From positions 1-19,669 of the forward strand of contig JAGVWJ010000037.1 of assembly GCA_018304385.1 (NCBI GenBank): a DNA stretch of 19,669 nt, read 5' to 3'. Shown here piece after piece: positions 867 through 19,669 of this stretch; the first letter of the stretch is position 1; each line of letters starts with the position of its first letter. The position numbers and the translations under genes are program-made. Source of the stretch: Candidatus Micrarchaeota archaeon (lineage in GTDB: Archaea; Micrarchaeota; Micrarchaeia; Anstonellales; Bilamarchaeaceae). The notes beneath the pieces are model-generated. The model did not search any database. It worked only from the letters and a program-made list of their open reading frames with translations, and had not been told where the DNA came from.

Positions 867-2324
867 ATGCAAAGACAAATTGAAAGCACGACACCTAAAA
901 CACCTAGAATTAACCTAGGAAAACATATGCTACCTCCAGACCATACTAAAATTGATTCTTTTAGAAAATGGCTAACTTTATTTTTTATTGAGAGAGGCCA
1001 TTATAAAATAACCTCAAAGGCAATTGAAGAACTTGGACCTAAACTTTTAAGAAAAACTACAGAATACGGCGAACCTGTTTCTGATAGGAAAAAAGAACCA
1101 GTAATTGAGATTGTTCATGAACTACCTAAAGAAGATACCCGAGCAATAGTAAGAAGAGAGATAGAAATGATAGGAAAAGAAAAAGGGTTTGGAAAATTAT
1201 TAGATATGGAATATGTAAAACTTACAAAAATCAGTTGGCAAGATTTAAGAGTTAGAAAAGAGGTAATAAGAAAATTTGTTGAAATGGCAGGAAAACCAGA
1301 GGAGATATCGTACCATGATTTTAACAAATGGGGATTGGGAGGATTATTGGTTTCTCACTATGAAAACTCGCCTTATAATGCTTGGGTTGAAGCAGGATAC
1401 GCATACTCGATAGAAGAAACATTAGAACATGCCAAAACCCAGCAATTCAAAGATGATAAATTGTATCCTTGGCATATGAAACGGGCACCATCTGGATTCT
1501 ATGAAAACATAGAAGGAAGAGTAGCTGCAGTAAAGTGGCTTGTTTGGAAAACGAAACAAGAACAACCAGAAAGACAAATAAAAGATATAACTCAAGATGA
1601 TTTTAGAAAAAATTATTTAGGTGGGATGACTGATTATTATTATCAAGGATCGCCCTATTTGGCTTTAACAGAAGCTGGTTATTGCTATTCTCTAGTTGAA
1701 ATTAAACAACATGCAGAAAAAATGCAATTTGGAACTGAAAAGGTATATCCTTGGGAGATGGAAAGAGCTCCTTATATCTATGATGAAAAAGAAAATAGAA
1801 TTGCTGCAGTTAGATGGTTAGTTTGGAAACTGAAGAAAGAGCCAAGAGAAATAACTTTCGATGATTTTAATAATAATGGATTAGGTGGATTATTGGGTGA
1901 GCACTACAAAGGTTCTCCCTATCTAGCATTAGTGGAAGCAGATTATGCTTATTCTTTGGATGAAATAAAGGAGCATGCAAGAACTGGATTTAAAACTGAT
2001 AAAATATATCCTTGGGAGATGACTAGAGTGTCATTTGATTTATGGCCAAATAAAGAATTTAGGATAGCCGCAACAAAATGGTTAGTTTGGAAATTAAAGA
2101 AAGAAGCAAGTCTGATTGGCCCATTGGCCAAAAGCCTTGAAGTTTATAAAACTTCAAGAGAGATAACTAAAGATGATTTTCACAACAATGGCTTAGGCGG
2201 TTTGCTAGTAAGACCAGAATATAGAGGGGCTCCAACTTATCTTGCGCTTTTGGAAGCAGGATTAGTAACTAAAGCAGATAAAGATCACATGAGAAATTCT
2301 AATAAAACAAATGTTTCTCGCTAA
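867..2324 (+). CDS. Uncharacterised helical repeat protein, paralog 1 (3 YPW(E/H)M repeat units of 87-94 aa; possibly DUF4046-like)
   Basis: 485 aa ORF. YPW motifs start at nt 1464, 1746 and 2007. The N-terminal block FRKWLTLFFIERGHYKIT is shared with the ORFs at 6573 and 18741. DUF4046 likeness is from memory of the SPY..YP..WE...W..A.KWL pattern and is unverified. TTTTATAG at -31..-24. Confidence 0.85.
   Translation: MQRQIESTTPKTPRINLGKHMLPPDHTKIDSFRKWLTLFFIERGHYKITSKAIEELGPKLLRKTTEYGEPVSDRKKEPVIEIVHELPKEDTRAIVRREIEMIGKEKGFGKLLDMEYVKLTKISWQDLRVRKEVIRKFVEMAGKPEEISYHDFNKWGLGGLLVSHYENSPYNAWVEAGYAYSIEETLEHAKTQQFKDDKLYPWHMKRAPSGFYENIEGRVAAVKWLVWKTKQEQPERQIKDITQDDFRKNYLGGMTDYYYQGSPYLALTEAGYCYSLVEIKQHAEKMQFGTEKVYPWEMERAPYIYDEKENRIAAVRWLVWKLKKEPREITFDDFNNNGLGGLLGEHYKGSPYLALVEADYAYSLDEIKEHARTGFKTDKIYPWEMTRVSFDLWPNKEFRIAATKWLVWKLKKEASLIGPLAKSLEVYKTSREITKDDFHNNGLGGLLVRPEYRGAPTYLALLEAGLVTKADKDHMRNSNKTNVSR
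2107..2158. repeat. 48-nt in-frame double-hairpin insert flanked by CAAG direct repeats
   Basis: TTGGCC-CATT-GGCCAA (2116-2131) and CTTGAAGTTT-ATA-AAACTTCAAG (2136-2158). CAAG occurs at 2107-2110 and 2155-2158. The insert adds 16 codons relative to the KKEPREIT loop of the preceding repeat. Confidence 0.7.
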
Positions 2325-4827: not shown

Positions 4828-5691
4828 TTATTCAGTTTCTGGAAGAACAAGTTTTCCTTTGTGGAACACTTGCCCACGACTGTCACGATTAAGATGTGGA
4901 GGATACTTCCCATTTGAATATATCTCACACCCACTGCCCATACCTTCGCCTATACTAAACAACCCTTTTTGCACAACTATTTTGCCACCAGTTGCATGTT
5001 CACCTGCAGAAGAAACATAACCTCTAATTATTATAGTACCTCCACTTATCCCCCAACCAACAAATTCGTTAGCATCACCTTTTACTAAAATTCTACCTGC
5101 TGACATGCCCCAGCCAATATCATCGCCTACATTGCCATCCACAGTTATATTTTTAGTGTTTTTATAGCCTATCCCACGAATCTCTTTCGTACCTTCTGCA
5201 AGATATTTCGTATATATTATAAAATCAGTATCTGAAGAATTATTTATCATCGCACTGAGAAAAATCCCTGCCTTTTCTGAAAAATGTTCTTCATCTTGAA
5301 AATCTGCTAATGAGATACTAAATCTCTCAATATCTTTTGCAGAGCAACGAATATCTTTTAATAATTCGAAAACATTATCATAACTCTCAGGAAAACCACC
5401 ACCAAGCTCATTTATATCACAATTGAATTTTATCCATACTGCTCTAACCATAGCTGAAGCTGTACTTTCATCTATATCCAGTTTTCTTACTTCGTGAGGT
5501 TCTTCTTTTTTGTATCTTCTGAATGGATTGCCAACATTTTGTTGGCAAATATCCCGATTGTTCACGTGAACAATGGGCATCTTGTCGCTTTGCGACAAGC
5601 TTGTGTCACGATTTTTTTGCCATCGTGACAATGGATCGCTAACACATAAACTAATGCTCAAGGCTGATGGCCTATGGCTTAATCTTCTCAT
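4828..5691 (-). CDS. Stand-alone FwdC/GltB-C (GXGXG) beta-helix domain protein with a repeat/hairpin-encoded N-terminal leader
   Basis: C-terminal repeats ITVDGNVGDDIGWGMSAGRILVKGDANEFVGWGISGGTIIIRG. No other fwd or glt genes are nearby. The first ~55 aa are encoded by heptamers and hairpins. Confidence 0.75.
   Translation of the reverse strand: MRRLSHRPSALSISLCVSDPLSRWQKNRDTSLSQSDKMPIVHVNNRDICQQNVGNPFRRYKKEEPHEVRKLDIDESTASAMVRAVWIKFNCDINELGGGFPESYDNVFELLKDIRCSAKDIERFSISLADFQDEEHFSEKAGIFLSAMINNSSDTDFIIYTKYLAEGTKEIRGIGYKNTKNITVDGNVGDDIGWGMSAGRILVKGDANEFVGWGISGGTIIIRGYVSSAGEHATGGKIVVQKGLFSIGEGMGSGCEIYSNGKYPPHLNRDSRGQVFHKGKLVLPETE
5528..5630. repeat. Four tandem DNA hairpins inside the 5' coding region of the GXGXG gene
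   Basis: TTGCCAAC-ATTTT-GTTGGCAA (5528-5548); perfect 18-bp palindrome ATTGTTCACGTGAACAAT (5557-5574) flanked by CCCG/GGG; CTTGTCGC-TTT-GCGACAAG (5581-5599); TGTCACGAT-N9-ATCGTGACA (5604-5630). Confidence 0.85.
5653..5680 (-). repeat. Degenerate heptamer array (AAGCCAT AGGCCAT CAGCCTT GAGCATT)
   Basis: Four NNGCYNT units immediately after ATG AGA AGA TT on the minus strand. Confidence 0.6.
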
Positions 5692-5722
5692 GTGTCTAAT
5701 TGTGGTAGAAAGGTATTTTAAT
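5692..5722 (-). promoter_or_regulatory. Leaderless-type promoter with CACAATT-N6-ATG element
   Basis: Minus strand reads ATTAAAAT at -31..-24 and CACAATT at -13..-7 (5704-5698). Confidence 0.6.
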
Positions 5723-5965
5723 ACTATGTCGGACTTAGAAACACCTTTAACACGTCAACCAATATACAGAACCAACTAATTAATTCGGATCAATAAATCG
5801 TGGTTTTACCTCAATGGTTCTGTATAGATTGAGCCGAATATTAATTTGGCTCAAGATATTACGAATTTAGTAAAAAACTTAATGTTGCATTGACCATGGG
5901 CTAAATTAGAAAAACCAGCAATATTTATAAATAAGCGAATACGTATATCTCAATAGGTGAATTGT

Positions 5966-6187
5966 ATGGAATACAAATTATCTGCTATTGTTGAAAAAGA
6001 AGATAAATGGTATGTTGCTCATTGTGTAGAACTTTCAGTTACTAGTCAAGGCAAAAATATAGAAGAAGCACTGCAAAATCTTAAAGACGCAGTCGGATTA
6101 TATCTTAAGCACGCTGACAAGGACGAGATCGACCAATTAAAAACTGCACATAAAGAAGCTCCAGTTGTAGCGACAATAACGGTGTAA
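5966..6187 (+). CDS. hicB: HicB-family antitoxin (short form)
   Basis: YVAHCVELSVTSQGKNIEEALQNLKDAVGLYL is the HicB N-terminal motif. SD AGGTGA at 5955-5960 favours ATG 5966 over GTG 5957; 73 aa. Confidence 0.85.
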   Translation: MEYKLSAIVEKEDKWYVAHCVELSVTSQGKNIEEALQNLKDAVGLYLKHADKDEIDQLKTAHKEAPVVATITV

Positions 6188-6189
6188 AT

Positions 6190-6435
6190 ATGAAACTGCC
6201 AGTCATTTCTGGCTTTGAAATGATAAAACTACTAGGTAAACTAGGTTTTCGTCAATTGGACCAAACCGGGAGCCACGTTATAATGTTTAGAGAGGATGAA
6301 AGAGGAAAATTTAGGCCAGTTGTTCCGCTCAGTCGTGAATTGGCTATAGGTACTATGCTGAGCATAATAAAACAAGCTGGCTTAAATCGTGACGAATTTT
6401 TAGAAATTTACTATGGCAAAAAGTACATAAAATAA
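6190..6435 (+). CDS. hicA: HicA-family mRNA interferase toxin
   Basis: MKLPVISG..MIKLL.KLGF....TGSHVIM...VVP...ELAIGTMLSIIKQAGL with the catalytic GSH; 2 nt downstream of hicB. Confidence 0.88.
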   Translation: MKLPVISGFEMIKLLGKLGFRQLDQTGSHVIMFREDERGKFRPVVPLSRELAIGTMLSIIKQAGLNRDEFLEIYYGKKYIK

Positions 6436-6541
6436 ATTAAAACTATGTTCTTAATATTTTCAACAAGTTGATAATTCTTAGAATTATTTACATTTTTATA
6501 GATAAATTTAAGGTGAGTTTACAAATGCCCCCTACAGTACC

Positions 6542-6572
6542 TTTTTAATCCCTTGTTACCACAATTTATGGT
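6542..6572 (+). promoter_or_regulatory. Leaderless-type promoter with CACAATT-N6-ATG element
   Basis: TTTTTAAT at 6542-6549 (-31..-24), CACAATT at 6560-6566, ATG at 6573. Confidence 0.6.
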
Positions 6573-6585
6573 ATGACAAGAAGAA

Positions 6586-6730
6586 CTGCTATTAGCAATT
6601 GGCCAGTAGCTAGTGGCCAACTGCCAACGCGATTGTTGCGCAACGCAACAATGCGCCCATTGTTGCCAAGCAACAATTGGGAAGCTAAACGCCAAAGGCC
6701 GATAGCTAAAGGCCAACAACCACTAACTGA
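6586..6730 (+). repeat. Degenerate heptamer array interrupted by two in-frame REP-like hairpins
   Basis: CTGCTAT TAGCAAT TGGCCAG TAGCTAG TGGCCAA CTGCCAA, then a 54-nt insert (6628-6681: CGCGATTGTTGCG-CAA-CGCAACAATGCG and CCCATTGTTGC-CAA-GCAACAATTGGG), then AAGCTAA ACGCCAA AGGCCGA TAGCTAA AGGCCAA CAACCAC TAACTGA. Confidence 0.8.
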
Positions 6731-7277
6731 TCAATTAGATAAATCAGCTGAATTCAAGCGTTGGCTAGCCTTATTTTTTATTGGAAAAGGAAATTATAAG
6801 ATTACTGATAAAGGATATGAAGAATTAGCACCACAAGTTACTAGACAAAACCTCGAATTTGGAGAGCCAGTTAGTGATCGAAAAAGAGAGCCAAGATTAG
6901 AAGAAAGAAGATCGTTAACCAAATCAGAACTAAGAGAGGCAGTAGCTAGAAAAGTAGAACAAATGCTTAGGGATGGAAAAGCTGAAGAATTATATGATAA
7001 TAGATATATTGATAAACCCAAAAGATTAGATTGGAAAAGCAAGGATACGAAATTAGCAGTAATAAAAAAACTTGTTGAATTGTTAGGTAAAAATCCAAGA
7101 GAAATAACTGCATATGATTTTAATAATAATGGATTAGGTGGATTATTAGTAGACTATTACAAAAACTCTCCTTATTTAGCATTAGTGGAAGCAAGTTATG
7201 CTTATTCTTTGGATGAAATAAAAGAGCATGCAAGAACTGGATTTAAAACTGATAAGATTTATCCTTGGGAAATGAGT

Positions 7278-7857
7278 AGAGTTGGAAACGAATTTTGGTA
7301 TGATAAAGAAATGAGAATAGCAGCTACTAAATGGCTGATGTGGAAATTAAATAAAGAACCTAAAGATATAACTCAATCATTACAACGTTTCACATTATTT
7401 AGCTTTATTAGAAGCTGGTTATGCATATTCCGAAGATGAAATTAAAGAACAAAATGGAGAATTTAGAACAGATAAATTTTATCCTTGGGAGATGGGTAGA
7501 ATACCATTTGATTTATGGCCAAATAAAGATATTAGAATAGCTGCCATTAAGTGGTTGATATGGAAATTGAAAAAAGAACCAAAAGAGATAATTGCTGATG
7601 ATTTTAATAATAATAGATTATCTGGGTTGTTAAGACCTTACAAAGGTTCTCCTTATTTAGCATTAGTAGAAGTAGGATATGCTTATTCTATAGATGAGAT
7701 AAAGGAGCATGCAAGAACTTGGTTTAAAACTGATAAACTGTATCCTTGGGAGATGCAAAGAGTTGGAAACGAATTTTGGTATGATAAAGAAATGAGAATA
7801 GCAGCTACTAAATGGCTGATGTGGAAATTAAATAAAGAACCTAAAGATATAACTCAA
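7278..7857 (+). repeat. Perfect 99-nt direct repeat (7278-7376 and 7759-7857)
   Basis: Base-by-base comparison, AGAGTTGGAAACGAATTTTGG...CCTAAAGATATAACTCAA, is identical in both copies. Confidence 0.92.
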
Positions 7858-8000
7858 GGATTAATACAAACTTACAACGGTTCTCCTTATGAAGCACTTT
7901 TTGAAGCAGGCATAGCAACAGAATCAGATGAAGCCTATATGCGAAGCTCGCATCATACGCACTAACTGAAAAACGCCTTCAAAATATCAGTAGATAAATT

Positions 8001-8789
8001 TCACCTAAGCGCCTGCTCTAACGCAGTCCGACTATCAGTTTTTTCATCACGGTATTTTATAATAATCGCAGCAGCTAGCTGAACCTCTCCAAATGCTGTT
8101 TTTTTAGGCAGTGAGCCTGATATCACAACTGCATTCTCTGGTACTACCCCGTAATATATCTTTCCATTAGTGGAATCAAATATAGGTGTACTTTGATTGA
8201 TAATAACACCTGAAGATATAACCGCCCTTCGCTTTACTATCACGCCTTCATAAATGCCAGATTGCCCTCCAATGAAACATCCATCCTCTATTATCACGGG
8301 CGTAGCCTGAGGTGGTTCTAACACACCACCGATTATTACACCTGCTGAAATATGAACGCTCTTGCCAATTTGGGCGCATGAACCAATAAGCACATGTGAA
8401 TCAATCATGGTGTCTGCGCCTACATACGCACCTATGTTTATGTAACTAGGCGCCATCACTACAACGCGCGGCTCTAAAAAACTACCATAACGAACAGTAG
8501 AACCTATTGGTACCACACGAACGCTGCCATCTAGTTTTTTTAACGGGATTTTATCATAATAATCATAGCCATAACGCATGCGTTTGATACTATGAAGCTT
8601 AAAGTAAAGGAGAATTGCCTTTTTTACCCAGATGTTTGCATGCCACTTGTTGTTTATTTTTTCTGCTGTACGCAGCTCGCCGTTGTCAAGCAGTTTTATT
8701 GTCGCTTCGACAGCTGAAATAAAATCTTTTTTCTTAAGTAGAGATGTGGTGCATTGCTCAACCATTTCTTTTATGTCTTTCAAATTCAT
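8001..8789 (-). CDS. dapD: 2,3,4,5-tetrahydropyridine-2,6-dicarboxylate N-succinyltransferase
   Basis: LLDNGELRTAE, WVKKAILLYF, YYDKIPLK, SYINIGAYVG..TMIDSH..IGSCAQIGKSVHISAGVIIGGVLEPPQATPVIIEDGCFIG (long E. coli-type DapD). Confidence 0.95.
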   Translation of the reverse strand: MNLKDIKEMVEQCTTSLLKKKDFISAVEATIKLLDNGELRTAEKINNKWHANIWVKKAILLYFKLHSIKRMRYGYDYYDKIPLKKLDGSVRVVPIGSTVRYGSFLEPRVVVMAPSYINIGAYVGADTMIDSHVLIGSCAQIGKSVHISAGVIIGGVLEPPQATPVIIEDGCFIGGQSGIYEGVIVKRRAVISSGVIINQSTPIFDSTNGKIYYGVVPENAVVISGSLPKKTAFGEVQLAAAIIIKYRDEKTDSRTALEQALR

Positions 8790-8790
8790 G

Positions 8791-9999
8791 TTACCGCCTC
8801 AACAAATACCATTCTGCAGAAACCTTACGTATTTCTTTTATCTTACCTTTTTCTACAGCAACCTCGCCAGCAATATCATGACCAAGGAAAAATGGCATGC
8901 TCTCTGAAAATCCATATGCGCCCGCGTTTAAAACAGCTAGCAAATCGCCTTCTTTTAGTTTTGGCAACCTGACATCACGCGAGAAAAAATCCAAGCTAGT
9001 ACAAAGCTGGCCTCCAACATAATATTTCTCTGTTTTCTGTGGCCTCAATTCATCAGCCTTTACAATTGGATGCTGTTGAAGTATAGCTGGCCTTAACATG
9101 TTATTAATGCCTCCGTCTGTTATTGCAATAGCCTGACCTCTGGATTTTTTAACGTCAACCACCCGCGTCAAAAAAACACCGCATTCTGCTACTAAAAATC
9201 TTCCTAATTCTATCCAAATTTCACGTTCTTCGGCAAGATTATTTATCTCATTGCAAAACAAATCCAGATCAAATAAAGGATCTGTCTTTTTATATGGAAC
9301 GCCAATGCCGCCGCCAATGTCAATATAATCAAATGTAACATTGCATGAATCCTCAATCCTTTTAGCTAACCCAATAATCTTTCTGGCATTTTCTGATAAA
9401 AGTTTTGCATCCAACACCCCAGAAGCAGAATAACAATGCAAACCGCTTAATTTGATCTTTAATTTTTTAAGTCTTTTGATAGTTAAAGGGATTTGCTCTT
9501 CATCAATACCGAATTTTTGACAACCGCCTGAAGTGGTAATAACTCCTTTGTCAACCTGAAATGATGCATTAACGCGTACGCCTATGCGTTGATGCGACAA
9601 TGCAGTTGCTACTTTTTCTGCCTCGTTAAAAGATTCTACATGATAAGAACATATTGGGCCGACATGCTTGATTGCATCTAGGGTTTTTCCAGGCCCGGAG
9701 AAAATAATGTCTTTAAAATTTTTTGCAACTGCAAACTCGCCTTTGCTGGCAATATCCACGCCACAGCCAAGATCAGCAAGCTTTTTTGCAACATAACGAT
9801 TTGCGTTTGCCTTCATTGCATAAAAAATTTTTACATTTTTTGAAAGGCGGTTGCGCAATGCAAGATACTTTCTCTCTATTAATTGAAGATCATAAACAAA
9901 CAAAGGCGTATCATCAGCTAATTCTTTAACAGCTATACCTCCCATCCGGATTTCATCCTGCCATTCATCCAACAGCTCGCGATAGCTAAAGTTATCCAA
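8791..9999 (-). CDS. lysA: Fold-type III PLP decarboxylase; diaminopimelate decarboxylase by context, with BtrK/PvsE-like motifs
   Basis: YAMKAN (PLP lysine), DIASKGE, FSGPGK, KFGID, DIGGG, ELGRFLVAECG, GQLCTSLD, AGAYG. TTG start with SD GGTGA. Located inside the dap operon. Confidence 0.7.
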   Translation of the reverse strand: MDNFSYRELLDEWQDEIRMGGIAVKELADDTPLFVYDLQLIERKYLALRNRLSKNVKIFYAMKANANRYVAKKLADLGCGVDIASKGEFAVAKNFKDIIFSGPGKTLDAIKHVGPICSYHVESFNEAEKVATALSHQRIGVRVNASFQVDKGVITTSGGCQKFGIDEEQIPLTIKRLKKLKIKLSGLHCYSASGVLDAKLLSENARKIIGLAKRIEDSCNVTFDYIDIGGGIGVPYKKTDPLFDLDLFCNEINNLAEEREIWIELGRFLVAECGVFLTRVVDVKKSRGQAIAITDGGINNMLRPAILQQHPIVKADELRPQKTEKYYVGGQLCTSLDFFSRDVRLPKLKEGDLLAVLNAGAYGFSESMPFFLGHDIAGEVAVEKGKIKEIRKVSAEWYLLRR

Positions 10000-10001
10000 T
10001 T

Positions 10002-11105
10002 TTATTCACCTTGATTCTCCTTGTTTAATTCCTCTAATATAATTTCTATTCCTTTCTCAATATTTGATTCTGAGATTGCAAGCGAAATACGCAAATGCCC
10101 CTCACCAAGATCAAAACCTGCACCAGGAATTGTAAGAATGCCACGTTTCTTTGCCAGATTCAGACAGAAATCATATGACCCCGTATTAATTTTAGGAAAG
10201 ATATAAAATGCGCCTTCCGGCCTTACATGTGAAATTCCTTTTTCAGTTAAAAGCCTTGAAGCGCGCGAAGCGCGCTGCGTAAACGCTTTATGCATATCAT
10301 TATACTTTATTCTTTCATTTATGCAGTATGCAACAGCCTTTTGTTCAGCAAGCGGGGCGCCGGAGACTGTAAAATTTTGTACTTTTACCATTTGTTCAAT
10401 AAAAGAACGTTGGGCGATAACCCACCCAATACGGATGCCAGTAGCAGAAAACATCTTTGATGCACTAGAAACTTTTATAACATTTTCATATTGCCCCAAA
10501 AATGAAATATGCTCATTAAATGAAAGCGTTTCATAACATTCATCTGCTAATAAAATTGCGTTATTATCTTTTGCAATATCAGCTATTGCCTTTACTTCTT
10601 CTTTTGAGAGAACTTTTCCATTAGGATTATTCGGAGAACATGCAATAATCATTTTTGCTCCGTGCGCTTGTTTTCTTAATGATTCTATATCAACTTTACC
10701 ATTAATCAAGCCAACAAATCTGCTGTTCACTCCTAATAATTTAGCAACATGACTATATGCAGGGTATGCAGGACAAAGAATAACAACATTGTCTCCTTTT
10801 TCAAGTGTGGCAAACATTGAAGCAAACAACGCTTGCGCAGCGCCAATAGTAACTATCACTTCATTACTTTCTACATTGTAATAATTTGCAAGCGCATCCA
10901 GAAGACCACGATCTCCTTGATTAGGTGCATAAGTAGTATGACCTTTCTTAATATTTTCTATAATTTTTTCTTGAAGAACTGGATGAATAGGGAAATCCGG
11001 TATCCCTAAACCTAGATTAAAATCGATTTTTAAATCGCCAACATCTTCCCGGATTTTGCGAATAAGGGAGCGCTCGCAAGAGGTTATTCTATTGCTAATA
11101 ATCAT
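10002..11105 (-). CDS. Class I/II PLP aminotransferase, DapC-like by context
   Basis: YAPNQG, CSPNNPNG, ADECY, SASKMFSATGIRIG motifs. Start overlaps the asd stop (ATGA). Confidence 0.85.
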   Translation of the reverse strand: MIISNRITSCERSLIRKIREDVGDLKIDFNLGLGIPDFPIHPVLQEKIIENIKKGHTTYAPNQGDRGLLDALANYYNVESNEVIVTIGAAQALFASMFATLEKGDNVVILCPAYPAYSHVAKLLGVNSRFVGLINGKVDIESLRKQAHGAKMIIACSPNNPNGKVLSKEEVKAIADIAKDNNAILLADECYETLSFNEHISFLGQYENVIKVSSASKMFSATGIRIGWVIAQRSFIEQMVKVQNFTVSGAPLAEQKAVAYCINERIKYNDMHKAFTQRASRASRLLTEKGISHVRPEGAFYIFPKINTGSYDFCLNLAKKRGILTIPGAGFDLGEGHLRISLAISESNIEKGIEIILEELNKENQGE

Positions 11106-12130
11106 ATATATCCTCTTTGCTCAAGTAATTCAGCAAGCCATACTGCGCCTGCTGCTGCGCCCATCTTAGAATTATGCGAGACTAGAACATACTTTAAACC
11201 AAGAACTGGATCACTGCGTATTCTTCCTACGCATGTTGTTAATCCATTGCCTGTTTCCCTGTCCAATCGCGGCTGTGGCCTCGAAGGATCAGAAAAAACC
11301 TTTATCACCTGCTTTGGCGTAGAATGGGTTTTAACAGAAGATGAAAAATTGCTAAACGCTTTTTCAGCCTGTTCTATGGTTGCTGGTTTTTTCAATTGCA
11401 CAAACACGCTTTCTGTATGACCGTTCAACACTGGCACGCGCGTACATGTGCATGAAATATCAAATTTTTTATTAAGTATCTTTTGCGCCTCTTTTTCTAC
11501 TTTTTCCTCTTCTCCAACAATATATGGAATGACATTATCAATAATATCCAATGCACGTACGCCAGGGCTTCTGCCTGCGCCAGACACTGCCTGCAATGAT
11601 GTCATAATAACACTCTCTATGCCAAATTGGTCCAACGGCTTTAGGGTTATTGCCAAACCAGTAGTAGTGCAATTTGGGATTGGCGCAATAAATCCTTTCC
11701 AATTTCTGGTTTTTCTTTGTTTTTCAATAAGCGAGACTTGTTCTGGATTAACTGGAGGAATAATCAAAGGCACATCATTATCATATCGAAAAGCAGATGC
11801 AGTGCTGATAACAGCACAATGCTTTGCAAATTTTGGTTCTAGCTCCCTGGCAACATCTGCATCTACACATGAAAATATTATATCATAATCAGAAGGATCA
11901 AGTTTGCCTGCGTCCTGCACCTTGATGTTATTGATCTCTTCAGGCATAGGGTCATCAGCATACCAACCAACTATTCCGTTAGTTTCTATAGCTTGCCTAT
12001 ATGTTTTACCTGCTGACCGCTCAGATGCAGCGAATGAGATTAAATCAAATTGGGGATGATTGTTTAATGCAACAATAGCCTGCTGGCCAACTATGCCGGT
12101 TACACCTACAATAGCTGTTTTATATTTCAT
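11102..12130 (-). CDS. asd: Aspartate-semialdehyde dehydrogenase, archaeal/eukaryote-type
   Basis: GVTGIVGQ, ASERSAGKTY, STASAFRY..DVPLIIPPVNPE, catalytic PNCTT, QAVSGAG, RVPVLNGHTE. ATG 12130 preferred (SD GGTGA at 12140-12136). Confidence 0.95.
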   Translation of the reverse strand: MKYKTAIVGVTGIVGQQAIVALNNHPQFDLISFAASERSAGKTYRQAIETNGIVGWYADDPMPEEINNIKVQDAGKLDPSDYDIIFSCVDADVARELEPKFAKHCAVISTASAFRYDNDVPLIIPPVNPEQVSLIEKQRKTRNWKGFIAPIPNCTTTGLAITLKPLDQFGIESVIMTSLQAVSGAGRSPGVRALDIIDNVIPYIVGEEEKVEKEAQKILNKKFDISCTCTRVPVLNGHTESVFVQLKKPATIEQAEKAFSNFSSSVKTHSTPKQVIKVFSDPSRPQPRLDRETGNGLTTCVGRIRSDPVLGLKYVLVSHNSKMGAAAGAVWLAELLEQRGYI

Positions 12131-12135
12131 GAATG

Positions 12136-13404
12136 TCACCTGTTAAAAAATTCTTTATGAAATTCCCTTATAACATGATCATAATTTTTCTGGTCTACCA
12201 CTAAAGAAAGATCTATCTCTGATGCCCCCTGGGATATCATCTCTACATTGATATGTTGTGAAGATAAAACTGCAAAAACCCTTGCGATAAATGATGGGTT
12301 GTTTTTAATTGCATTGCCTACTATGCCAACAAGCGCAAGCGGCTCTTTAAGCTTAACATCAAAGTTATTCAAATCTGCTAATGCATGCAGTGCCTGCTTA
12401 CCATAAACCTGTTCAACAGTAAATGATATGTTTGCCTGCCCTGTAGCAATAACATCTACTGGTATATTTGCATCAGCAATGCGTGTAAGAATTTTTGAGG
12501 CAATGCCAAATGCCTCGACCATCTCATTACCTGATACACTGATTACTGCCAAGTTTTTTCTCCCTGCAATTGCAGCGATTTCATTTCTTTTACATTCTTT
12601 ATAAATCTGCGTGCCTCTGTTATCCGGCTGCATGATATTTTTTATCTCCGCAACAATCTTGGTTCCAACCAATGGTTCAAGCGCAGAAGGATGCAGGATT
12701 TTTGCACCAAACCTGCAAACCTCGCTAGCCTCTTCGAAACCCATGTCCAGGATATGTTTTGCACCTGGAACAATACGCGGATCTGCTGTTAAAAATCCAT
12801 CAACATTTTTCCAAAACTCAATGCGCCTGGCATTTAAAGAACGTGCAATTGCTGCAGCTGAATAGTCACTTCCACCCCTGCCAAACAAACAAATCTCATT
12901 ATTCTCATTAGGTGCATAGAAACCCGTAGTAATCACATTTTCATTTGGGAGTTTAATCTTGGTTTTCTTAAAATCACAGCGCGCATTAGCATACGGACCA
13001 TGTGCAATAAGACCAAACTTCTCAGCAGGGATAAGTGAAAAATCAGGAAGGTATGCATGAAGAACTAGCGCTGCTAAAAGTTCTCCTCTTGAAAGAACAT
13101 AAGCACGTAAACGCTCGCTAACCTCTGCAGTATATGATACGCCTGTTAATATTTTTTCCAATTCATTAAAAACATCTTCTAACGCAGTTTGTGCAACGTT
13201 ATGGCGCTGGCGCAAAGCAACTAAACCAGTTTGAAAATCCTTTTGTGCTAATGCCAAATCCACAATTTTTAACAATTCATCTGTTACGCCCTGCAAAGCA
13301 GATACGACGACTACCCTTGGCTTACTGGCAGAGATAACACTAACAATACGTTGAATATCTTCCAACGATGACAATATCCCTCCACCAAATTTTTGAACAA
13401 GCAT
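12136..13404 (-). CDS. lysC: Aspartate kinase with C-terminal ACT domains
   Basis: VQKFGG, VVVVSA, FGRGGSDYSAA, DGFLTADPRIVP, FGAKILHP, MISQGASEI. Confidence 0.95.
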   Translation of the reverse strand: MLVQKFGGGILSSLEDIQRIVSVISASKPRVVVVSALQGVTDELLKIVDLALAQKDFQTGLVALRQRHNVAQTALEDVFNELEKILTGVSYTAEVSERLRAYVLSRGELLAALVLHAYLPDFSLIPAEKFGLIAHGPYANARCDFKKTKIKLPNENVITTGFYAPNENNEICLFGRGGSDYSAAAIARSLNARRIEFWKNVDGFLTADPRIVPGAKHILDMGFEEASEVCRFGAKILHPSALEPLVGTKIVAEIKNIMQPDNRGTQIYKECKRNEIAAIAGRKNLAVISVSGNEMVEAFGIASKILTRIADANIPVDVIATGQANISFTVEQVYGKQALHALADLNNFDVKLKEPLALVGIVGNAIKNNPSFIARVFAVLSSQHINVEMISQGASEIDLSLVVDQKNYDHVIREFHKEFFNR

Positions 13405-13412
13405 AAGGACAC

Positions 13413-14150
13413 CTAACTGTTTAATACGTCTTTGAAATCGTGTAAAATACCATCTTTTTTACCATGTATCCATTTTGCTGATAATAAGGCACCCTGTGCG
13501 AAGCAACGCCTTGAAGTAGCTTTATGCCAAAGCTCTATCCTTTCTGCATTTCCTCCAAAAATAAGCGCATGATCTCCAATAACATCACCCACGCGTAATG
13601 AATGCACACCTACTTCTTTTTTTCTTTCACCTATGCCTTTTCTGCCATATGCAATATCGCTTTTATTCAATGCTTGAAGAGTGCGGAGCACCGTACCAGA
13701 TGGCGAATCAATCTTTAATCTATGATGGATATCAAGCATTTCCATATCATAGGCTGATAAACGGTCTGCCAAAAACTTTGCAGCCTCAATAAAGATATTA
13801 ACGCCAATTGAAAAATTGGCTGATATCACGCCACTGGTTTTATTTTTCGCAATTGCCTCGCGTATGCGCGTAATATCCTCTGGCGCAATGCCAGTAGTGC
13901 CAATAATAATATTTTTTCCAAGATTTGCTGCTGCAATCGCATTAGCAGGCGCAGCATTCTTTGTAGAGAAATCAACAACAATATCTGCAGATGCAAATGC
14001 GCTTTCTGGTTCATCAAAAACATTGACACCTTCGACCTTATTCCCGTGTGGTTCTAGAATTGACGCAATGCGAAAACCAGTATCTAACATTGCTGCTGAA
14101 AAAACTTCTTTGTTCATTTTGCCAAAACCAGATAATGCAATAGTAATCAT
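13413..14150 (-). CDS. dapB: 4-hydroxy-tetrahydrodipicolinate reductase
   Basis: VVDFS, IIGTTG, SANFSIGVN, HHRLKIDSPSGT, HSLRVGDVIGDH. SD GGTGA. Confidence 0.95.
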   Translation of the reverse strand: MITIALSGFGKMNKEVFSAAMLDTGFRIASILEPHGNKVEGVNVFDEPESAFASADIVVDFSTKNAAPANAIAAANLGKNIIIGTTGIAPEDITRIREAIAKNKTSGVISANFSIGVNIFIEAAKFLADRLSAYDMEMLDIHHRLKIDSPSGTVLRTLQALNKSDIAYGRKGIGERKKEVGVHSLRVGDVIGDHALIFGGNAERIELWHKATSRRCFAQGALLSAKWIHGKKDGILHDFKDVLNS

Positions 14151-14159
14151 TCAATCACC

Positions 14160-15134
14160 CTAATAGCTAGGCCAATAGCTGTCATTAGCCAGGCGATCTT
14201 CTATGCTTACACCATAAAACTTTTCTATGGGCTCCAGGATACTAGGCGAATTTTGCCATATTGTGCGGAGCATATTACGAACATGCGTTGTTGCATCTTT
14301 TGTCATTCTTCCAAGCGGCCTGCGAACATCATATGCAATCATGCCCAAACCAGCCATAGCAGTTTTAATTGGCACTGGATTACGGAACTTTTGTCCTGCT
14401 AATTTTACTGTCACTAATGAGAATAATGAAGAAAGGATTTTTGCCAATGATTCTGCGCCTAGCTCGTGATTATTGACTACTTTACAAAAATCCTGTATAG
14501 CGCGCGGCGCAATATTACTCATAACAGATATTACCCCTTTCCCGCCAATAGCCGGATCACTCATAATGTTATAAGTTAAATCATCATCACCGGACATTAT
14601 TGTAATATTTGAAAGACTGCGCGTTTTTCGCATGCGCTCAAGATTTCCTGTTGCCTCCTTAACTGTATCTAGATTTGGATAACGATTATGTAGAACAACC
14701 AGATCTTCAACGCTTAGCTCGCAACCTGTTCGCCCTGGAATAACATATGCAACAAAAGCTAGATCAGGGAATTTTTCGCATAAATACCCATAGTATTCTC
14801 TAGAAAGCTCCATTGATGATGGCCCATTATAATAGCAATCTACAAGCAGAATACGGTTACTGCCTAATGCTTGCGCCTCGCGCGTAAGATGCTCGCTGTG
14901 TTCTGTGCTATTTGTTCCGCATCCTGCAATAACATTTGCTTTTTTATCCAAAGCATGCCTGATCAAATTTGCTTTTTCCTCATCACTTGTAGTTGGGCTT
15001 TCGCCAGTTGTGCCATTGACTACGATATCCTGCACTCCATTTTGCACTTGAAATTCTATAAGACGATCAAATGCATCTACGTCTATTTTGCCATTTTTCA
15101 TTGGCGTGACAACAGCTGTACAACAGTTTTCCAT
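14160..15134 (-). CDS. dapA: 4-hydroxy-tetrahydrodipicolinate synthase (C-terminally extended type)
   Basis: TAVVTPM, NGTTGESPT, IAGCGTNST, YVIPGRTG, Schiff-base VKEATG, MSGDD, GVISV. Start placed at ATG 15134 (AGAGGGGGG upstream) rather than 15251. Confidence 0.93.
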   Translation of the reverse strand: MENCCTAVVTPMKNGKIDVDAFDRLIEFQVQNGVQDIVVNGTTGESPTTSDEEKANLIRHALDKKANVIAGCGTNSTEHSEHLTREAQALGSNRILLVDCYYNGPSSMELSREYYGYLCEKFPDLAFVAYVIPGRTGCELSVEDLVVLHNRYPNLDTVKEATGNLERMRKTRSLSNITIMSGDDDLTYNIMSDPAIGGKGVISVMSNIAPRAIQDFCKVVNNHELGAESLAKILSSLFSLVTVKLAGQKFRNPVPIKTAMAGLGMIAYDVRRPLGRMTKDATTHVRNMLRTIWQNSPSILEPIEKFYGVSIEDRLANDSYWPSY

Positions 15135-15158
15135 ATTAATCCCCCCTCTATTATGATA

Positions 15159-15208
15159 TTCGTAATAAATATTTATAAATCTATCGAAATTAGTAAATTT
15201 ATTACGAA
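15159..15208 (-). promoter_or_regulatory. dap operon promoter: palindromic TATA inside a 12-bp inverted repeat
   Basis: TTCGTAATAAAT (15159-15170) and ATTTATTACGAA (15197-15208) are exact reverse complements and flank ATTTATAAAT (15171-15180). Confidence 0.6.
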
Positions 15209-15287
15209 AATCGTACAAATAAATAAAACTGATGATGCGATAAATCAACAATTAAGCCTTCTTTCCTAGGAATTCTTGCATCTGGAC

Positions 15288-16655
15288 TCATTCTTTCAAC
15301 ACATAATAAACTCCTTTATATGATCCTATCTTTTTCAGATAGCTGAACTTCATCATTTCGTTTATTTCTCTTGTGGCAGTGGCGAGAGAAACTTTATTTA
15401 ATTTCACATACATTTTTGTTTTAATAGATTTATTTTTCTTCAAAAATTCTATTGCAATCAACTGTCTTTCATTCAAATCTTTATGAGATTTAATTGGCTT
15501 AAGCTCACTTTTTGCATTTCTTAATATTACCCTGAAAAATGCTTCATAAATCCCAAACTCTGGATCGCGCAAACCATAACTCCTCATTTCGTTAATCATT
15601 CTTGGAATGCCTGATCCTAATCCTTCCACGTAACCATAATCTCTGAGTATCCGATAAGTTAGTGGATTTCTCTGAACTGAAATTGTCCCAAATAGTTCCC
15701 TCGGCAATGCCTGAGGCAAAGAGCCAGGGTTTGTTATTTCGATTCTATCCTCAAAGACATAAATCTGAATCGCATCCTTGCTAAAGTAATCTCTGTGAGC
15801 TATTGCATTTACTATTGCTTCTCTTATTACATCAATTGGGTAATAATATCTTTCTTCTCTTTTTAACTCATTTTCAATCTCAATGCTTTTTGGAATATTT
15901 GCTTTTATAAATGCCATAGATCGATCTATGGATTCTATTAAATCTGCTTGCACTAATTCATGTGATACAATTTTTACCTGTTCGGATCCTTCAAATCTCA
16001 CAAGCTTTATTTCCATTTGCGGATTGAATAAAATAGGATCCTTTGCAAAGAACAAAGTCGCAGCATTTTTTACTTTTATTTCCCCATTTCTGCTTGCAAG
16101 TTGAATACTGACCAGAAAATCTTCTACAGAATGGGTTTCTAGAAAATCGTTCTGTTTTCTCAAACTCAAATAACGTTTTATTTTTGTAGTATCCAAATCA
16201 TCCATTTTTGCACTGCTTGGCGTTTCATCAAAACATAAAAATTGTTTTGCCCTGAGAAAATCAACCATCTGGTTTCCTTCTATTCTTTTCAATGTACTGC
16301 CTACTTTGACGTAAATTACACCTTGAAAAGTATGGAATGTATTGATCATTGCCTTTTGTACGGTTATGACTATTATTTTCTTATCCTGTAAGCTTAACAC
16401 TTCTATTTTTGGCACAAGCGGTGGCGAAATCGCTTGAGCTGCTGCTGAAATTTTTTGTTGAAGAACATCCGCATCTTCTTCGATTCCAACGATTTCTTTT
16501 TTTGCGTTCACACCAATAACAACTATTCCGCCATAGGTATTCGCCAAAGCGCACATAATTTTTGAAAATTCTTGGGAACTATGAAATGATTGCTTAAGCT
16601 CTACTTCTTGGGTTTCTCCACTCTCAATTATTTTTAATATTTGTTCTTTCTCCAT
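15288..16655 (-). CDS. AlbA_2 (Schlafen-like) domain + RecG C-terminal (HATPase_c_4-like) + HTH protein
   Basis: GETQEVELK, CALANTYGGIVVIGV (AlbA_2); IREAIVNAIAHRDY, IEITNPGSLP, RNPL, VEGLGSGIPRM (RecG_C); LNERQ...TATREINEM (wHTH). Confidence 0.85.
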   Translation of the reverse strand: MEKEQILKIIESGETQEVELKQSFHSSQEFSKIMCALANTYGGIVVIGVNAKKEIVGIEEDADVLQQKISAAAQAISPPLVPKIEVLSLQDKKIIVITVQKAMINTFHTFQGVIYVKVGSTLKRIEGNQMVDFLRAKQFLCFDETPSSAKMDDLDTTKIKRYLSLRKQNDFLETHSVEDFLVSIQLASRNGEIKVKNAATLFFAKDPILFNPQMEIKLVRFEGSEQVKIVSHELVQADLIESIDRSMAFIKANIPKSIEIENELKREERYYYPIDVIREAIVNAIAHRDYFSKDAIQIYVFEDRIEITNPGSLPQALPRELFGTISVQRNPLTYRILRDYGYVEGLGSGIPRMINEMRSYGLRDPEFGIYEAFFRVILRNAKSELKPIKSHKDLNERQLIAIEFLKKNKSIKTKMYVKLNKVSLATATREINEMMKFSYLKKIGSYKGVYYVLKE

Positions 16656-16668
16656 ATAATCACGCTTC

Positions 16669-16805
16669 TGATTAGTAATGAATAGTAATGAGTAGTATTT
16701 AAAATACTTGACTTTTTACTAATTTTTGATGAATTCTAACGACGAAAAGTTGTATTGATACAAAGTGAATAGTATTGAGTAGTAAAAAATAGCAATGAAT
16801 AGTAT
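16669..16805. repeat. Two arrays of TGARTAGTAW decamers upstream of the AlbA_2 gene
   Basis: TGATTAGTAA TGAATAGTAA TGAGTAGTAT (16669-16698) and TGAATAGTAT TGAGTAGTAA AAAATAGCAA TGAATAGTAT (16766-16805). Confidence 0.8.
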
Positions 16806-16826
16806 TTGAATTCAAGAAACGAAATG

Positions 16827-18581
16827 CTAATCCTCCAACGTCGATATATCGCCTTCCGGCAATCCTAGTTCGCGTGCGCGCAACAAACGCCGCATTATCT
16901 TACCGCTTCTTGTTTTTGGAAGTTTATCAACAAATGCAATCTCTCTTGGATACGCATGCGCAGCTAAGTGCTGCTTAACAAATTTCTTAATATCTTCCTC
17001 AAGCTCTGGATTTGGAGTATAACCAGCACGCAATGCAACGAATGCTTTGATAATTTCACCACGCAATTCATCTGGCTTTCCAATTACGCCTGCCTCTGCA
17101 ATTGCTGGATGTTCAACAAGCACGCTTTCTACTTCAAACGGACCAACACGCTCGCCAGATGTTTTAATTACATCATCTGCCCTTCCAATATACCAAAAAT
17201 ATCCATCCTCATCCTTGCGTGCGCGATCTCCTGTTATGTACCAGCCATTGTTGAATAGTTTTTTATATCGTTCTTCATCTCCCCAAAGCGTGCGCAGCAT
17301 GCTTGGCCAACCTGGTTTAATTGCTAAATGACCTTCTGTATTTGTTGGTAGCTCCTGACCAGTATCATCAACAACAGCTGCAACAATGCCAGGAAATGGT
17401 TTGCCCATTGAACCAAGCTTAATTGGCATACAAGGATAATTAGAAATTAACATGCTTCCAGTTTCTGTTTGCCACCATGTATCGTGAAATGGAAGATTAA
17501 ATACTTTTAGCCCCCAGCGAATGCCTTCTGGATTTAGTGGTTCGCCAACGCTATAAATATGACGAAGGTGCGAAAGATTATATTTTTTTGTAATTTCTTC
17601 GCCTGCCTTCATAAGCATTCTTATTGCAGTTGGTGCGGTATACCAAAGCGTAACCTCATGGCGCTCCAGCGCAGAGTACCAACCTTCTGGATCAAATCTT
17701 CCTTCGTATAATAATACTGTTGCACCGTTCGAAAGCGGACCAAGAATTCCGTATGAGATTCCTGTAACCCAACCATGGTCTGCTGTGCACCAATAAATAT
17801 CTTCTGGATGAATATCATGAATTAATTTATGTGTATAATGCTGCTGCAAAACAGCCATGTGCGCATGAACTACGCCTTTTGATTTTCCTGTGCTACCTGA
17901 AGTATAAAGCAAAAATGCATGATCCTCTGGATGCGTTTTTTCTATTTCAAATTCTTTTGATGCTTCTTTCATTTCTTCATTGTAATCAATAGTTATTGGC
18001 ATTGCTGACTGGCCTTCTATTTTTTGAATCGGTTCATTGTTTACTAATATAATATAAGTAAGATCAGGAAGCTTGTCTTTTATCTTATCAATTCTTTGTT
18101 TTAAATCTGGCGTAGTTACAACTGCCTTTGCCTTGCTATTGCCCAATCTATCAAGCAATGCCTCTTCTCCAAATGCTGAGAATAGCGTGCTAGCAATTGC
18201 GCCAACTTTTAATGTGCCTAAAAATGAGGCATAAACTGCAGGAATCCTTGGTAAGAATAAAAAAACCCGTTCGCCTTTTACAATTCCAAGTTTCTTTAGT
18301 ACATTTGCAAATTTATTCGTCATGTGTTTGAGGTCTAAATAGGTATACTTATCTATTTTGCCGTTTGCTGCTTCATAGATTAATGCAACTTTATTTTTAT
18401 TGTGGTTCTTTGCATGGCGGTCTACTGCATTATAAGCAGCATTTAATTCACCGTTATCAAACCATTCTATTTCATTATGTACATTCTTCCAATCAAAGTT
18501 TTTGTATAAAGCTTCATAATCTTTTAGATTGGGTTGTAATACGAATTTGGTTTGATCTTTTGTTACTATTTCTGTCTGCAT
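16827..18581 (-). CDS. acsA: Acetyl-CoA synthetase (AMP-forming), Bacillus AcsA-like
   Basis: YTSGSTGKSKGV, YWCTADHGWVTG, SVGEPLNPE, DTWWQTETG, GRADDVIKTSG, LPKTRSGKIMRR...GDISTLED. ATG 18581 preferred (SD AGAGGAG 8 nt upstream). Confidence 0.93.
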   Translation of the reverse strand: MQTEIVTKDQTKFVLQPNLKDYEALYKNFDWKNVHNEIEWFDNGELNAAYNAVDRHAKNHNKNKVALIYEAANGKIDKYTYLDLKHMTNKFANVLKKLGIVKGERVFLFLPRIPAVYASFLGTLKVGAIASTLFSAFGEEALLDRLGNSKAKAVVTTPDLKQRIDKIKDKLPDLTYIILVNNEPIQKIEGQSAMPITIDYNEEMKEASKEFEIEKTHPEDHAFLLYTSGSTGKSKGVVHAHMAVLQQHYTHKLIHDIHPEDIYWCTADHGWVTGISYGILGPLSNGATVLLYEGRFDPEGWYSALERHEVTLWYTAPTAIRMLMKAGEEITKKYNLSHLRHIYSVGEPLNPEGIRWGLKVFNLPFHDTWWQTETGSMLISNYPCMPIKLGSMGKPFPGIVAAVVDDTGQELPTNTEGHLAIKPGWPSMLRTLWGDEERYKKLFNNGWYITGDRARKDEDGYFWYIGRADDVIKTSGERVGPFEVESVLVEHPAIAEAGVIGKPDELRGEIIKAFVALRAGYTPNPELEEDIKKFVKQHLAAHAYPREIAFVDKLPKTRSGKIMRRLLRARELGLPEGDISTLED

Positions 18582-18709
18582 AATTTCCACTCCTCTGACA
18601 TTAACAATTAGATTAGTAGTTTGATGTGGAAGAATGATAATAGAAAGGTATAAAAGCGTTTTATTTTTGAGGTATGGACAATGGTCGAAACGTTTATCCT
18701 AGCAGAACG

Positions 18710-18740
18710 TTTTTATACTCTTGCTAACACAATTAAGGGT
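18710..18740 (+). promoter_or_regulatory. Leaderless-type promoter with CACAATT-N6-ATG element
   Basis: TTTTTATA at 18710-18717 (-31..-24), CACAATT at 18728-18734, ATG at 18741. Confidence 0.6.
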
Positions 18741-19669
18741 ATGACAAGAAGACTAGCAATGAGCAGTGGGCAGGTAGCCAGCAGCCAACTTCCAATAGCT
18801 AAAGACCGACTGCCATTAACTGATCACTTCGATAAAAAAGCAGAATTCAAACGATGGCTAGCGTTATTCTTCATTGAAAGAGGAAAATATAAGATTACTG
18901 AGAAAGGATATGCTGAACTTGCGCCACAATTAGTGAGACAAGATACTCATTTTGGAGAGGACAACGCTGCAAAAGAAAGAAGCACAAAAAGAGAAATAGC
19001 AAGACCATTAACAAGAAAAGAAATAAAAGAAGCAGTAGCAGCAAAAGTAGAAGCACTGTGCAGAGAAGGGAAGAGTGAGGGATTACTTGATGAAGGACAT
19101 CTAGCTTATAAAGCAGATTGGAAAGAAAAGGGAACTAGAGTTACCGTAATAAAAAAACTCTTAGAATTTTTAGGTGCTAGTCCTGCTAAACTTGATGAAT
19201 TAAGAAAAGAATTAAATGAACTTATTCTAAAAGCTGCAAGAGAAGAAAAAACTGATGCAAAAAGAATGCAAGAGGTTTTAGATGAGATACGAAGAAATTT
19301 TGAAAGAATTAGGAGAATAACTGCAGATGATTTTAATAATGTCAGTCTAGGAGGAGGACTCTTGAGTAAGTATTATAATTCTTCTATATATCTAGCATTA
19401 GTAGAAGCAGGCTATGCTTATTCTGAAGATGAGCTAAGAAAAGATGCTAGAACAGGGCAGTTTAGAACTGATAAGCTCTATCCTTGGGAGATGACCCGAA
19501 TTGGAAATTGGGTAGATAAAGAAAACAGAATAGCTGCTATAAAGTGGTTAGTTTGGAAAACAAAGAAAGATCCTAGAGAGATAACTAAAGATGATTTTAG
19601 ATCTAGTGGGTTAGAAGGTTTAGTAGCTGGACGATATAAAGGCTCTAATTATAAGGTTTTAGTAGAAGC
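18741..19669 (+). CDS. Repeat protein paralog 3 (3' end beyond right edge)
   Basis: Not in the ORF track. Hand translation is open to the edge: MTRRLAMSSGQVASSQLP...AEFKRWLALFFIERGKYKIT...DDFNNVSLGGGLL...YLALVEAGYAYSEDE...FRTDKLYPWEMTRIGNWVDKENRIAAIKWLVWK. Confidence 0.88.
   Translation, partial: MTRRLAMSSGQVASSQLPIAKDRLPLTDHFDKKAEFKRWLALFFIERGKYKITEKGYAELAPQLVRQDTHFGEDNAAKERSTKREIARPLTRKEIKEAVAAKVEALCREGKSEGLLDEGHLAYKADWKEKGTRVTVIKKLLEFLGASPAKLDELRKELNELILKAAREEKTDAKRMQEVLDEIRRNFERIRRITADDFNNVSLGGGLLSKYYNSSIYLALVEAGYAYSEDELRKDARTGQFRTDKLYPWEMTRIGNWVDKENRIAAIKWLVWKTKKDPREITKDDFRSSGLEGLVAGRYKGSNYKVLVE
18754..18823 (+). repeat. Degenerate heptamer array, 10 units, no hairpin insert
   Basis: TAGCAAT GAGCAGT GGGCAGG TAGCCAG CAGCCAA CTTCCAA TAGCTAA AGACCGA CTGCCAT TAACTGA. 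Confidence 0.7.

Follow-up and report, generated by a model that had tools for sequence, protein, structure and literature searches.

Three genes on contig JAGVWJ010000037.1 of a Candidatus Micrarchaeota archaeon (assembly GCA_018304385.1) begin so much alike, with a TATA-like octamer, the motif CACAATT, a start codon followed by arginine codons and then degenerate 7-nt repeats, that the question arises whether promoter, start and leader form a single mobile piece. The initial annotation had answered it in the affirmative and described a portable promoter-plus-leader module capping accessory gene families. The window, by which we mean the whole stretch of 19,669 nt that was analysed, is contig C60 of a genome of 1.53 Mb in 65 contigs with 36.5% G+C, which contains an archaeal 16S ribosomal RNA (rRNA) gene (Micrarchaeota, DPANN). 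We find that the look-alike starts are real and are inclined, with modest confidence, to read them as a stack of three layers, each with a history of its own, rather than as one portable unit: the leaderless promoter geometry of the genome, a promoter block belonging to one gene family, and a coding leader colonised by repeats.

The three genes had been called non-homologous. This holds for the gene that starts at 5691(-), which is unrelated to the other two, and does not hold for those starting at 6573(+) and 18741(+), which are paralogs. The latter belong to family A (about 11 loci), repeat proteins with an N-terminal FKRWLALFF domain followed by units of about 90 residues; its members in the window, at 867(+), 6573(+) and 18741(+), are referred to as paralogs 1, 2 and 3. 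The gene at 5691(-) belongs to family B, of which the genome has about 16 paralogs (tblastn placed paralogs on 12 contigs), and it also matches an FwdC-like NCBIfam model below the curated cut-off. A further family, C, comprises proteins of about 270 aa without a known domain that start MRRL...DPFRRFKPE. Families A and C, like a leader piece of 78 residues, had no match in Pfam or NCBIfam; a DUF4046-like hit for family A in the protein atlas, with scores below 0.9, is a lead only. The features in question are the following.

867..2324, plus strand: family A paralog 1; TATA box present, CACAATT and heptamer leader absent
4828..5691, minus strand: family B GXGXG beta-helix gene, 287 aa (PF01493 GXGXG, E=3.5e-08)
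5698..5722, minus strand: putative promoter of the GXGXG gene, ATTAAAAT at -31..-24 followed by CCTTTCTACCACAATT up to -7; similar to the promoter of family A
5530..5691, minus strand: leader of the GXGXG gene, consisting of MRRLS, about four heptamer units (~5651-5678), a remnant SDPL, hairpin inserts and NPFRRYKKE
6539..6566, plus strand: putative promoter block of paralog 2, ACCTTTTTAATCCCTTGTTACCACAATT, TFB recognition element (BRE)/TATA plus proximal element
6573..6752, plus strand: leader of paralog 2, consisting of MTRR, heptamer arrays, an in-frame hairpin pair, a second array and PLTD, up to FKRWLALFF
6623..6688, plus strand: double-hairpin block of 66 nt, identical to an intergenic copy on contig C20 (~13327-13392)
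6573..7965, plus strand: family A paralog 2, in two frames with a shift near 7372
18707..18734, plus strand: putative promoter block of paralog 3, variant TTTTTATACTCTTGCTAACACAATT, which is also present at C49:3342, at C39:1227 and in the sister genome G002
18741..18845, plus strand: leader of paralog 3, MTRRLAMSSGQVASSQLPIAKDRLPLTD, about nine heptamer units

The four elements described for the three starts were all confirmed at their stated places. CACAATT-N6-ATG stands at 5689-5704(-), 6560-6575(+) and 18728-18743(+) and nowhere else in the window (three matches against 0.10 expected; none of 200 shuffles reached three). Genome-wide the exact pattern has six matches, and the full cassette is present at four of them, the fourth being at C24:32539. 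The TATA-like octamers ATTAAAAT, TTTTTAAT and TTTTTATA lie at -31..-24, and the genes start with ATG AGA AGA at 5691(-) and with ATG ACA AGA AGA at 6573(+) and 18741(+). A detector that demands at least four in-phase GCNA units, with a shuffled genome as control, placed heptamer arrays at 6588-6629, 6670-6718 and 18777-18818; the gene at 5691(-) has four looser units, GCCATAG GCCATCA GCCTTGA GCATTAG, at about 5651-5678(-). Paralog 1 has its TATA box and, as had been stated, neither CACAATT nor heptamers. Genes (n=1360) were called as the longest non-overlapping open reading frames (ORFs), and as paralogs are not independent of each other, all enrichment statistics are indicative only.

The TATA box, which had been counted as a hallmark of the cassette, belongs to the first layer. 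A TATA-like hexamer is found at -35..-22 of 394 of the 1360 called genes, with the peak of the profile at -30..-23, where these 394 genes read T-T-T-(T/A)-A-A-A; the same profile also shows T at -19 and -7 and A at -10 and -9, and 87% have a pyrimidine at -1. The remaining called genes have a GGTG-like Shine-Dalgarno signal at -11..-6. Leaderless first genes together with internal genes led by a Shine-Dalgarno signal are the usual archaeal picture (PMC2151090, PMC4983044). Because a TATA box at this distance is generic in the TATA genes of the genome, its position at -31..-24 is not specific for the cassette and simply reflects the leaderless geometry. With TATA at about -30..-23 and a pyrimidine at -1, transcription would start on the A of the ATG, as the spacing and the missing Shine-Dalgarno signal suggest.

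CACAATT belongs to a second layer. The initial annotation had itself considered that the motif might be the generic proximal element of most genes and not be associated with heptamer leaders. The first half of this proposal fails because CACAAT is rare upstream of genes (within -22..-4 in only 6 of 1358) and because C is depleted at -13..-7 genome-wide (frequency 0.07-0.15). The second half is correct. CACAATT is the 3' end of a sharply bounded block of 28 nt (ACCTTTTTAATCCCTTGTTACCACAATT, with the variant form TTTTTATACTCTTGCTAACACAAT), which is found near-identical at 9 of the 11 family A loci regardless of whether heptamers are present; five block-bearing loci have heptamer-free leaders such as MHKASV..., MQVVALLIRR..., MHSILLAV... 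and MMTKLNLAHP.... When seven family A loci are aligned, similarity is confined to the block and the gene body and does not extend to the upstream flank or the leader, and for this reason the block is, judged from the alignments, family A's own promoter, kept by selection. Its layout is maintained in the genome G002 of the same genus (TTTTTATACTCTTTGTAACACAGTT-N5-ATG) and in G005 from another genus. Paralogs and relatives would have inherited the block, which is conserved far better than the coding leader, and it would include an operator or proximal element co-regulating family A with two or three other genes, among them that at 5691(-).

The genome was scanned for the block with an nhmmer profile, which replaced a loose fuzzy search for the promoter core that had yielded 225 mostly meaningless matches. 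The profile was built from eight regex-picked sites (six of family A, C60:5699 and C63:13066) and run against the same genome. It recovered three further family A loci absent from the profile, and its only new match outside family A was the ORF-less site C24:17881 (E=0.11). The E-values of C63:13066 (0.0011) and C60:5699 (0.0055) are partly circular, both sites being in the profile; independent support for C60:5699 comes from the exact CACAATT-N6-ATG, from 20 of 28 positions in common with the family A block (hand count) and from the same 6-nt spacing to the ATG. Beyond family A the block is seen only at the GXGXG gene at 5691(-), at the gene at C63:13059 and at C24:17881.

The last of these sites, C24:17852-17881 (+), is a good copy of the block but lacks an ATG at the usual distance; as the next ORF begins about 113 nt downstream, the product may be a transcript with a long 5' untranslated region (UTR) or a small RNA. 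Local copying of a neighbour's promoter onto the gene at 5691(-) was considered and rejected, since the 881 nt between the two genes hold HicA/HicB and are otherwise without likeness to family A loci. The toxin-antitoxin pair itself, a HicB-like antitoxin (DUF7387, E=8.8e-07) and a HicA toxin (PF07927, E=1.9e-14), is encoded at 5957-6435 (+), between the two divergent cassette genes.

The third layer is the leader. Genome-wide the detector found 75 heptamer arrays, a count of strict arrays gave 47, and neither kind was found in the shuffled genome. Thirty-two of the 75 are intergenic, many others touch gene ends and several lie in frame inside genes; the array subtype GGGCARTGNGCAGTGAGCC occurs at 35 loci, often in inverted pairs directly behind stop codons. 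The arrays escaped Tandem Repeats Finder because their units are too degenerate. An array preceded by the head ATG AGA ARA CTA GC stands at gene starts in eight of nine matches, and it does so on three non-homologous families, namely four family A paralogs, members of family B (GXGXG) and family C; the near-identical form common to A, B and C reads ATG AGA ARA CTA GCAATGA GCAGTGG. The similarity of B and C proteins is confined to about the first 60-70 residues (E=3e-08), including a conserved module ...A(N/S)DPFRR(F/Y)KPE..VRK, and that of A and B proteins to the 20-residue heptamer leader (the first 20 residues of paralog 3 with a GXGXG paralog). A database search with residues 1-42 of one family C protein returned only that protein itself. 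Twenty-one genes of families B and C have a conserved FRRYK-type motif, about 12 of them with heptamer-type leaders. Homologs in other genera have basic N-termini and no heptamers, and members in the sister genome have both heptamer and plain leaders. A Fisher test of MRR-type starts against heptamer leaders gave an odds ratio of 16 (p=2e-09), which is inflated by paralogy and is not relied on.

Family C is unusually large for a small genome, with 16 matches here (contigs C7, C10, C16, C19, C20, C33, C36, C40, C41, C47 and others) and 76 in the 1.3-Mb sister genome G002. A small membrane protein at C4:17912-18385 (-) starts with MDSSRQSAMSNGQVAS and has, before its transmembrane helix, an array variant almost as in paralog 3 (26 of 28 nt, hand count).

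Hairpin elements, which had been suspected of settling in the leaders, are indeed found there. The leader of paralog 2 is that of paralog 3 plus an in-frame double hairpin, which agrees in 66 of 66 nt (alignment columns 45-110) with the intergenic copy on C20, likewise flanked by heptamer units; by blastn the leader and C20 are 95% identical over 83 nt. In the GXGXG gene the hairpins lie between the remnant SDPL and the conserved NPFRRYKKE.

The leaders are very probably translated because all 25 of them are stop-free only in the frame of their gene. Over a total of 2328 nt there is no stop codon in this frame and there are 70 and 72 in the other two; for the leader of paralog 2 alone the numbers are 0 versus 5 and 7, and for that of the GXGXG gene 0 versus 4 in each other frame. 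A stop-free composition as the cause was rejected, the other frames having about one stop per 11 codons. In most promoter-bearing genes the start defined by the TATA box is the only in-frame ATG upstream of the conserved modules; in a few, such as paralog 3 and the gene on C37, there is an additional ATG inside the array.

We therefore favour, at somewhat better than even chances for the whole including its last step, the following explanation. A basic start (M-R-R-L or M-T-R-R) is followed by a low-complexity stretch that dispersed heptamer arrays (GCYANNN, GCARTGR) and hairpin mini-elements would have colonised. With an mRNA that begins at its AUG, whatever inserts between promoter and gene body would be translated, and only in-frame stop-free insertions would survive because a leaderless mRNA must start with AUG; the double hairpin in the leader of paralog 2 is a direct example of such an insertion. 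The head shared by A, B and C most likely reflects at least one past recombination event, which would have grafted a leader of the B/C type onto one group of family A paralogs; the evidence for this is suggestive, not decisive. The repeat segment would be a tolerated, probably disordered N-terminal spacer, probably without a dedicated function.

How does this explanation compare with others? A single travelling unit of promoter, start codon, MRR and heptamer array that caps accessory families would account for the four loci with the complete pattern and for the gene at 5691(-), which is not of family A and yet combines an A-like promoter with an MRR-heptamer leader. The pieces are, however, found apart in both directions. 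Five family A loci have the block in front of unrelated, heptamer-free leaders, and at least nine heptamer-led genes of families B and C, as well as other genes, have no CACAAT, most B/C genes with a promoter of their own using TTATAAACAC-N-CTAATT-N-AC ATG instead. In addition, the likeness between the type-H leaders of family A and the B/C leaders begins at the ATG, positions -6..-1 being different (ATGGT/AGGGT versus ATAAC/ATGAC). Of the proposed module there remains a start-plus-leader common to non-homologous families; that the promoter travels with it is highly improbable. A less extensive cassette, from the ATG through the array, is a more serious candidate, albeit an unlikely one. Here the arrays would be homology joints at which start-plus-leader pieces or bodies are swapped among paralogs and families, and a leader could be joined to its body or separated from it when a unit is gained or lost. 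The head on three families is what one would expect of it, as is a leader-specific variant, GGGCAATGTGCAGTGAGCC, that is identical in the family A gene at C24:32553 and in a family B gene on C37. The body of paralog 2 most resembles that of a paralog with a plain leader (82% identity, starting exactly at the FKRWL codons), whereas its leader matches type-H paralogs whose bodies are 71-76% identical, and type-H leaders do not form one clade in the family A tree. These identity differences are modest, however, and only 1 of the 10 inner branches of the tree is well supported. In the sister genome (G002:C22, L038 1397-1486) the homologous leader MRKRLAMSSGQ... is a separate ORF of 27 codons that stops 5 nt short of the main ATG; as the frames of leader and body differ by 2, a single extra heptamer would fuse them. 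This out-of-frame leader may reflect recent decay or a faulty assembly, or it may hint at switching. Degenerate arrays would moreover make both slippage and homologous pairing inefficient, and many arrays lie at 3' ends or between genes, where they could play no such part. The most far-reaching version, in which arrays after the start codon of leaderless genes are recombination joints and frame couplers, leaders are exchanged among A, B and C, and a change by one unit toggles between a fused leader and an upstream mini-ORF, would provide genes with a possible part in host contact with a means of diversification or switching; we regard it as doubtful, and more so than exchange as such.

Switching by classical phase variation, that is by slipped-strand mispairing in a 7-nt repeat whose length is not a multiple of 3, is hardly credible. 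The unit length, the arrays in 5' coding regions and the G002 homolog, which one unit would correct and whose main frame stays open over the 135 nt preceding its ATG, speak for it. All 25 leaders in the genome are in frame, though, and slippage should be rare because adjacent units are seldom identical, neighbours differing in nearly every array. The leader could also be a targeting tag whose basic start and low-complexity stretch mark the proteins of families A, B and C for export, for a host cell or for a compartment. In favour of this, all three are large accessory families (with about 11 loci for A, about 16 for B and the matches already given for C), B and C share the conserved N-terminal ...DPFRRFKPE..VRK module, and basic N-termini recur in relatives. 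An export leader had already been thought of in the initial annotation; the leaders are unlike Sec or Tat signals because no hydrophobic core follows the basic start, as reading of sequences such as MTRRLAMSSGQVASSQLPIAKD by eye indicated, in contrast to clear signal peptides such as MKKLLILVFLGLL. Many paralogs, and the homologs in other genera, lack the heptamer part, whose length also varies freely (63-183 nt), and the DPFRRFK module is a likelier signal than the heptamers. A tag in the heptamer leaders is accordingly improbable.

Several points also weigh against the stack of three layers. The second layer is not explained by descent alone because the GXGXG gene at 5691(-) and the gene at C63:13059 carry an A-type block without being family A paralogs. 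A head that is common to three families at the nucleotide level, with the shared stretch starting at the ATG, is more order than random colonisation by repeats predicts, and the leader could be selected for a function. The history of the leaders is uncertain because the family A tree is poorly resolved. What points to leaderless initiation and to translation of the leaders is promoter geometry and open frames, and the genes were called as longest ORFs, not by a trained gene finder.

Some observations on the window and the genome may be added. Where the frame of paralog 2 changes, at 7366-7380, the usual DDFNNNGLGGLL stretch is missing, which probably marks a disrupted gene or a scar of recombination. 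The final 96 nt of the window (19572-19667) are identical to the reversed end of contig C62 (46013-46108, -), and because of these identical ends the two contigs probably join inside paralog 3. The 16S rRNA gene (L001 1501-3258, G000 C3) has 1758 nt against a model of 1478 positions and thus contains insertions of about 280 nt.

If the three layers are read correctly, the leaderless layout shapes the fate of selfish repeats: without a 5' UTR, an insertion behind the promoter becomes protein, and N-terminal peptide tails result. For work on DPANN archaea the locus offers three handles, a sharply bounded promoter block that marks a probably co-regulated gene set, an N-terminal module of about 60 residues common to two large unrelated accessory families, and a head-plus-array sequence typical of gene starts. 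It also contains a warning for annotation. Because heptamer units can contain ATG, arrays rich in it create false N-terminal extensions of other genes in longest-ORF calls; arrays with ATG-containing units such as GCAATGA and GCCATGA were seen just upstream of real starts at the loci C4:31289, C41:4901, C31:7878, C11:12020, C12:37184 and elsewhere. Should leaders indeed be swapped or switched via the arrays, this would be a new route of variation in host-dependent archaea.

A text search of the literature found no paper pairing Micrarchaeota with heptamers. New here are the separation into three layers, the family-specific promoter block, the gene-start head on three families and the argument from leaderless translation to the preservation of the frame. 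The individual layers have parallels in known systems. In archaeal leaderless promoters, which have been mapped in haloarchaea and others, BRE/TATA lies about 26-28 nt upstream of a start site coinciding with the AUG (PMC2151090, PMC4983044), a TATA spacing that PMC8553660 gives as well. The octamers at -31..-24 of all three ATGs fit this distance, and the TATA box at -30..-23, the pyrimidine at -1, the A at +1, the A/T-rich region near -10, the cassette genes without a Shine-Dalgarno signal and the operon-internal genes with a GGTG-like motif are as in these promoters. What distinguishes family A from the generic leaderless consensus is the long conserved block of its own between TATA and start.

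The heptamers recall repeats known from cyanobacteria and other bacteria, namely the short tandemly repeated repetitive (STRR) sequences and long heptanucleotide simple-sequence repeats; among these are the direct repeats TAACTGA in Beggiatoaceae (PMC4679880) and heptameric repeats in Xanthomonas and Nostoc (PMC4692102). They have in common with the STRR type a 7-nt unit, many dispersed short arrays well above chance (75 versus 0 in the shuffled genome), a preference for gene boundaries and an unknown function. They differ in that the units are degenerate (GCYANNN or GCARTGR), that the host is a DPANN archaeon, that a subset lies in frame in 5' leaders that are very probably translated and that the arrays are often inverted pairs. 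The simple-sequence contingency locus with 7-bp repeats at hmw1A of Haemophilus influenzae (PMC8262952) likewise has a heptamer unit at the 5' end of accessory or surface-type genes, where a single unit could flip the frame; its repeats are perfect and vary demonstrably in copy number, whereas those described here are degenerate. The hairpins come closest to the Rickettsia palindromic elements and similar small palindromes that have entered genes in frame (reviewed in PMC10969869; for a related idea see PMC2996958). As with these, a small hairpin element is in frame and stop-free within a coding region, and the same 66-nt element is found in an ORF with the frame kept and, identical, in non-coding DNA. 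The micrarchaeal element, at 66-72 nt, is much shorter; it lies among heptamer arrays and in an N-terminal leader rather than in a folded domain.

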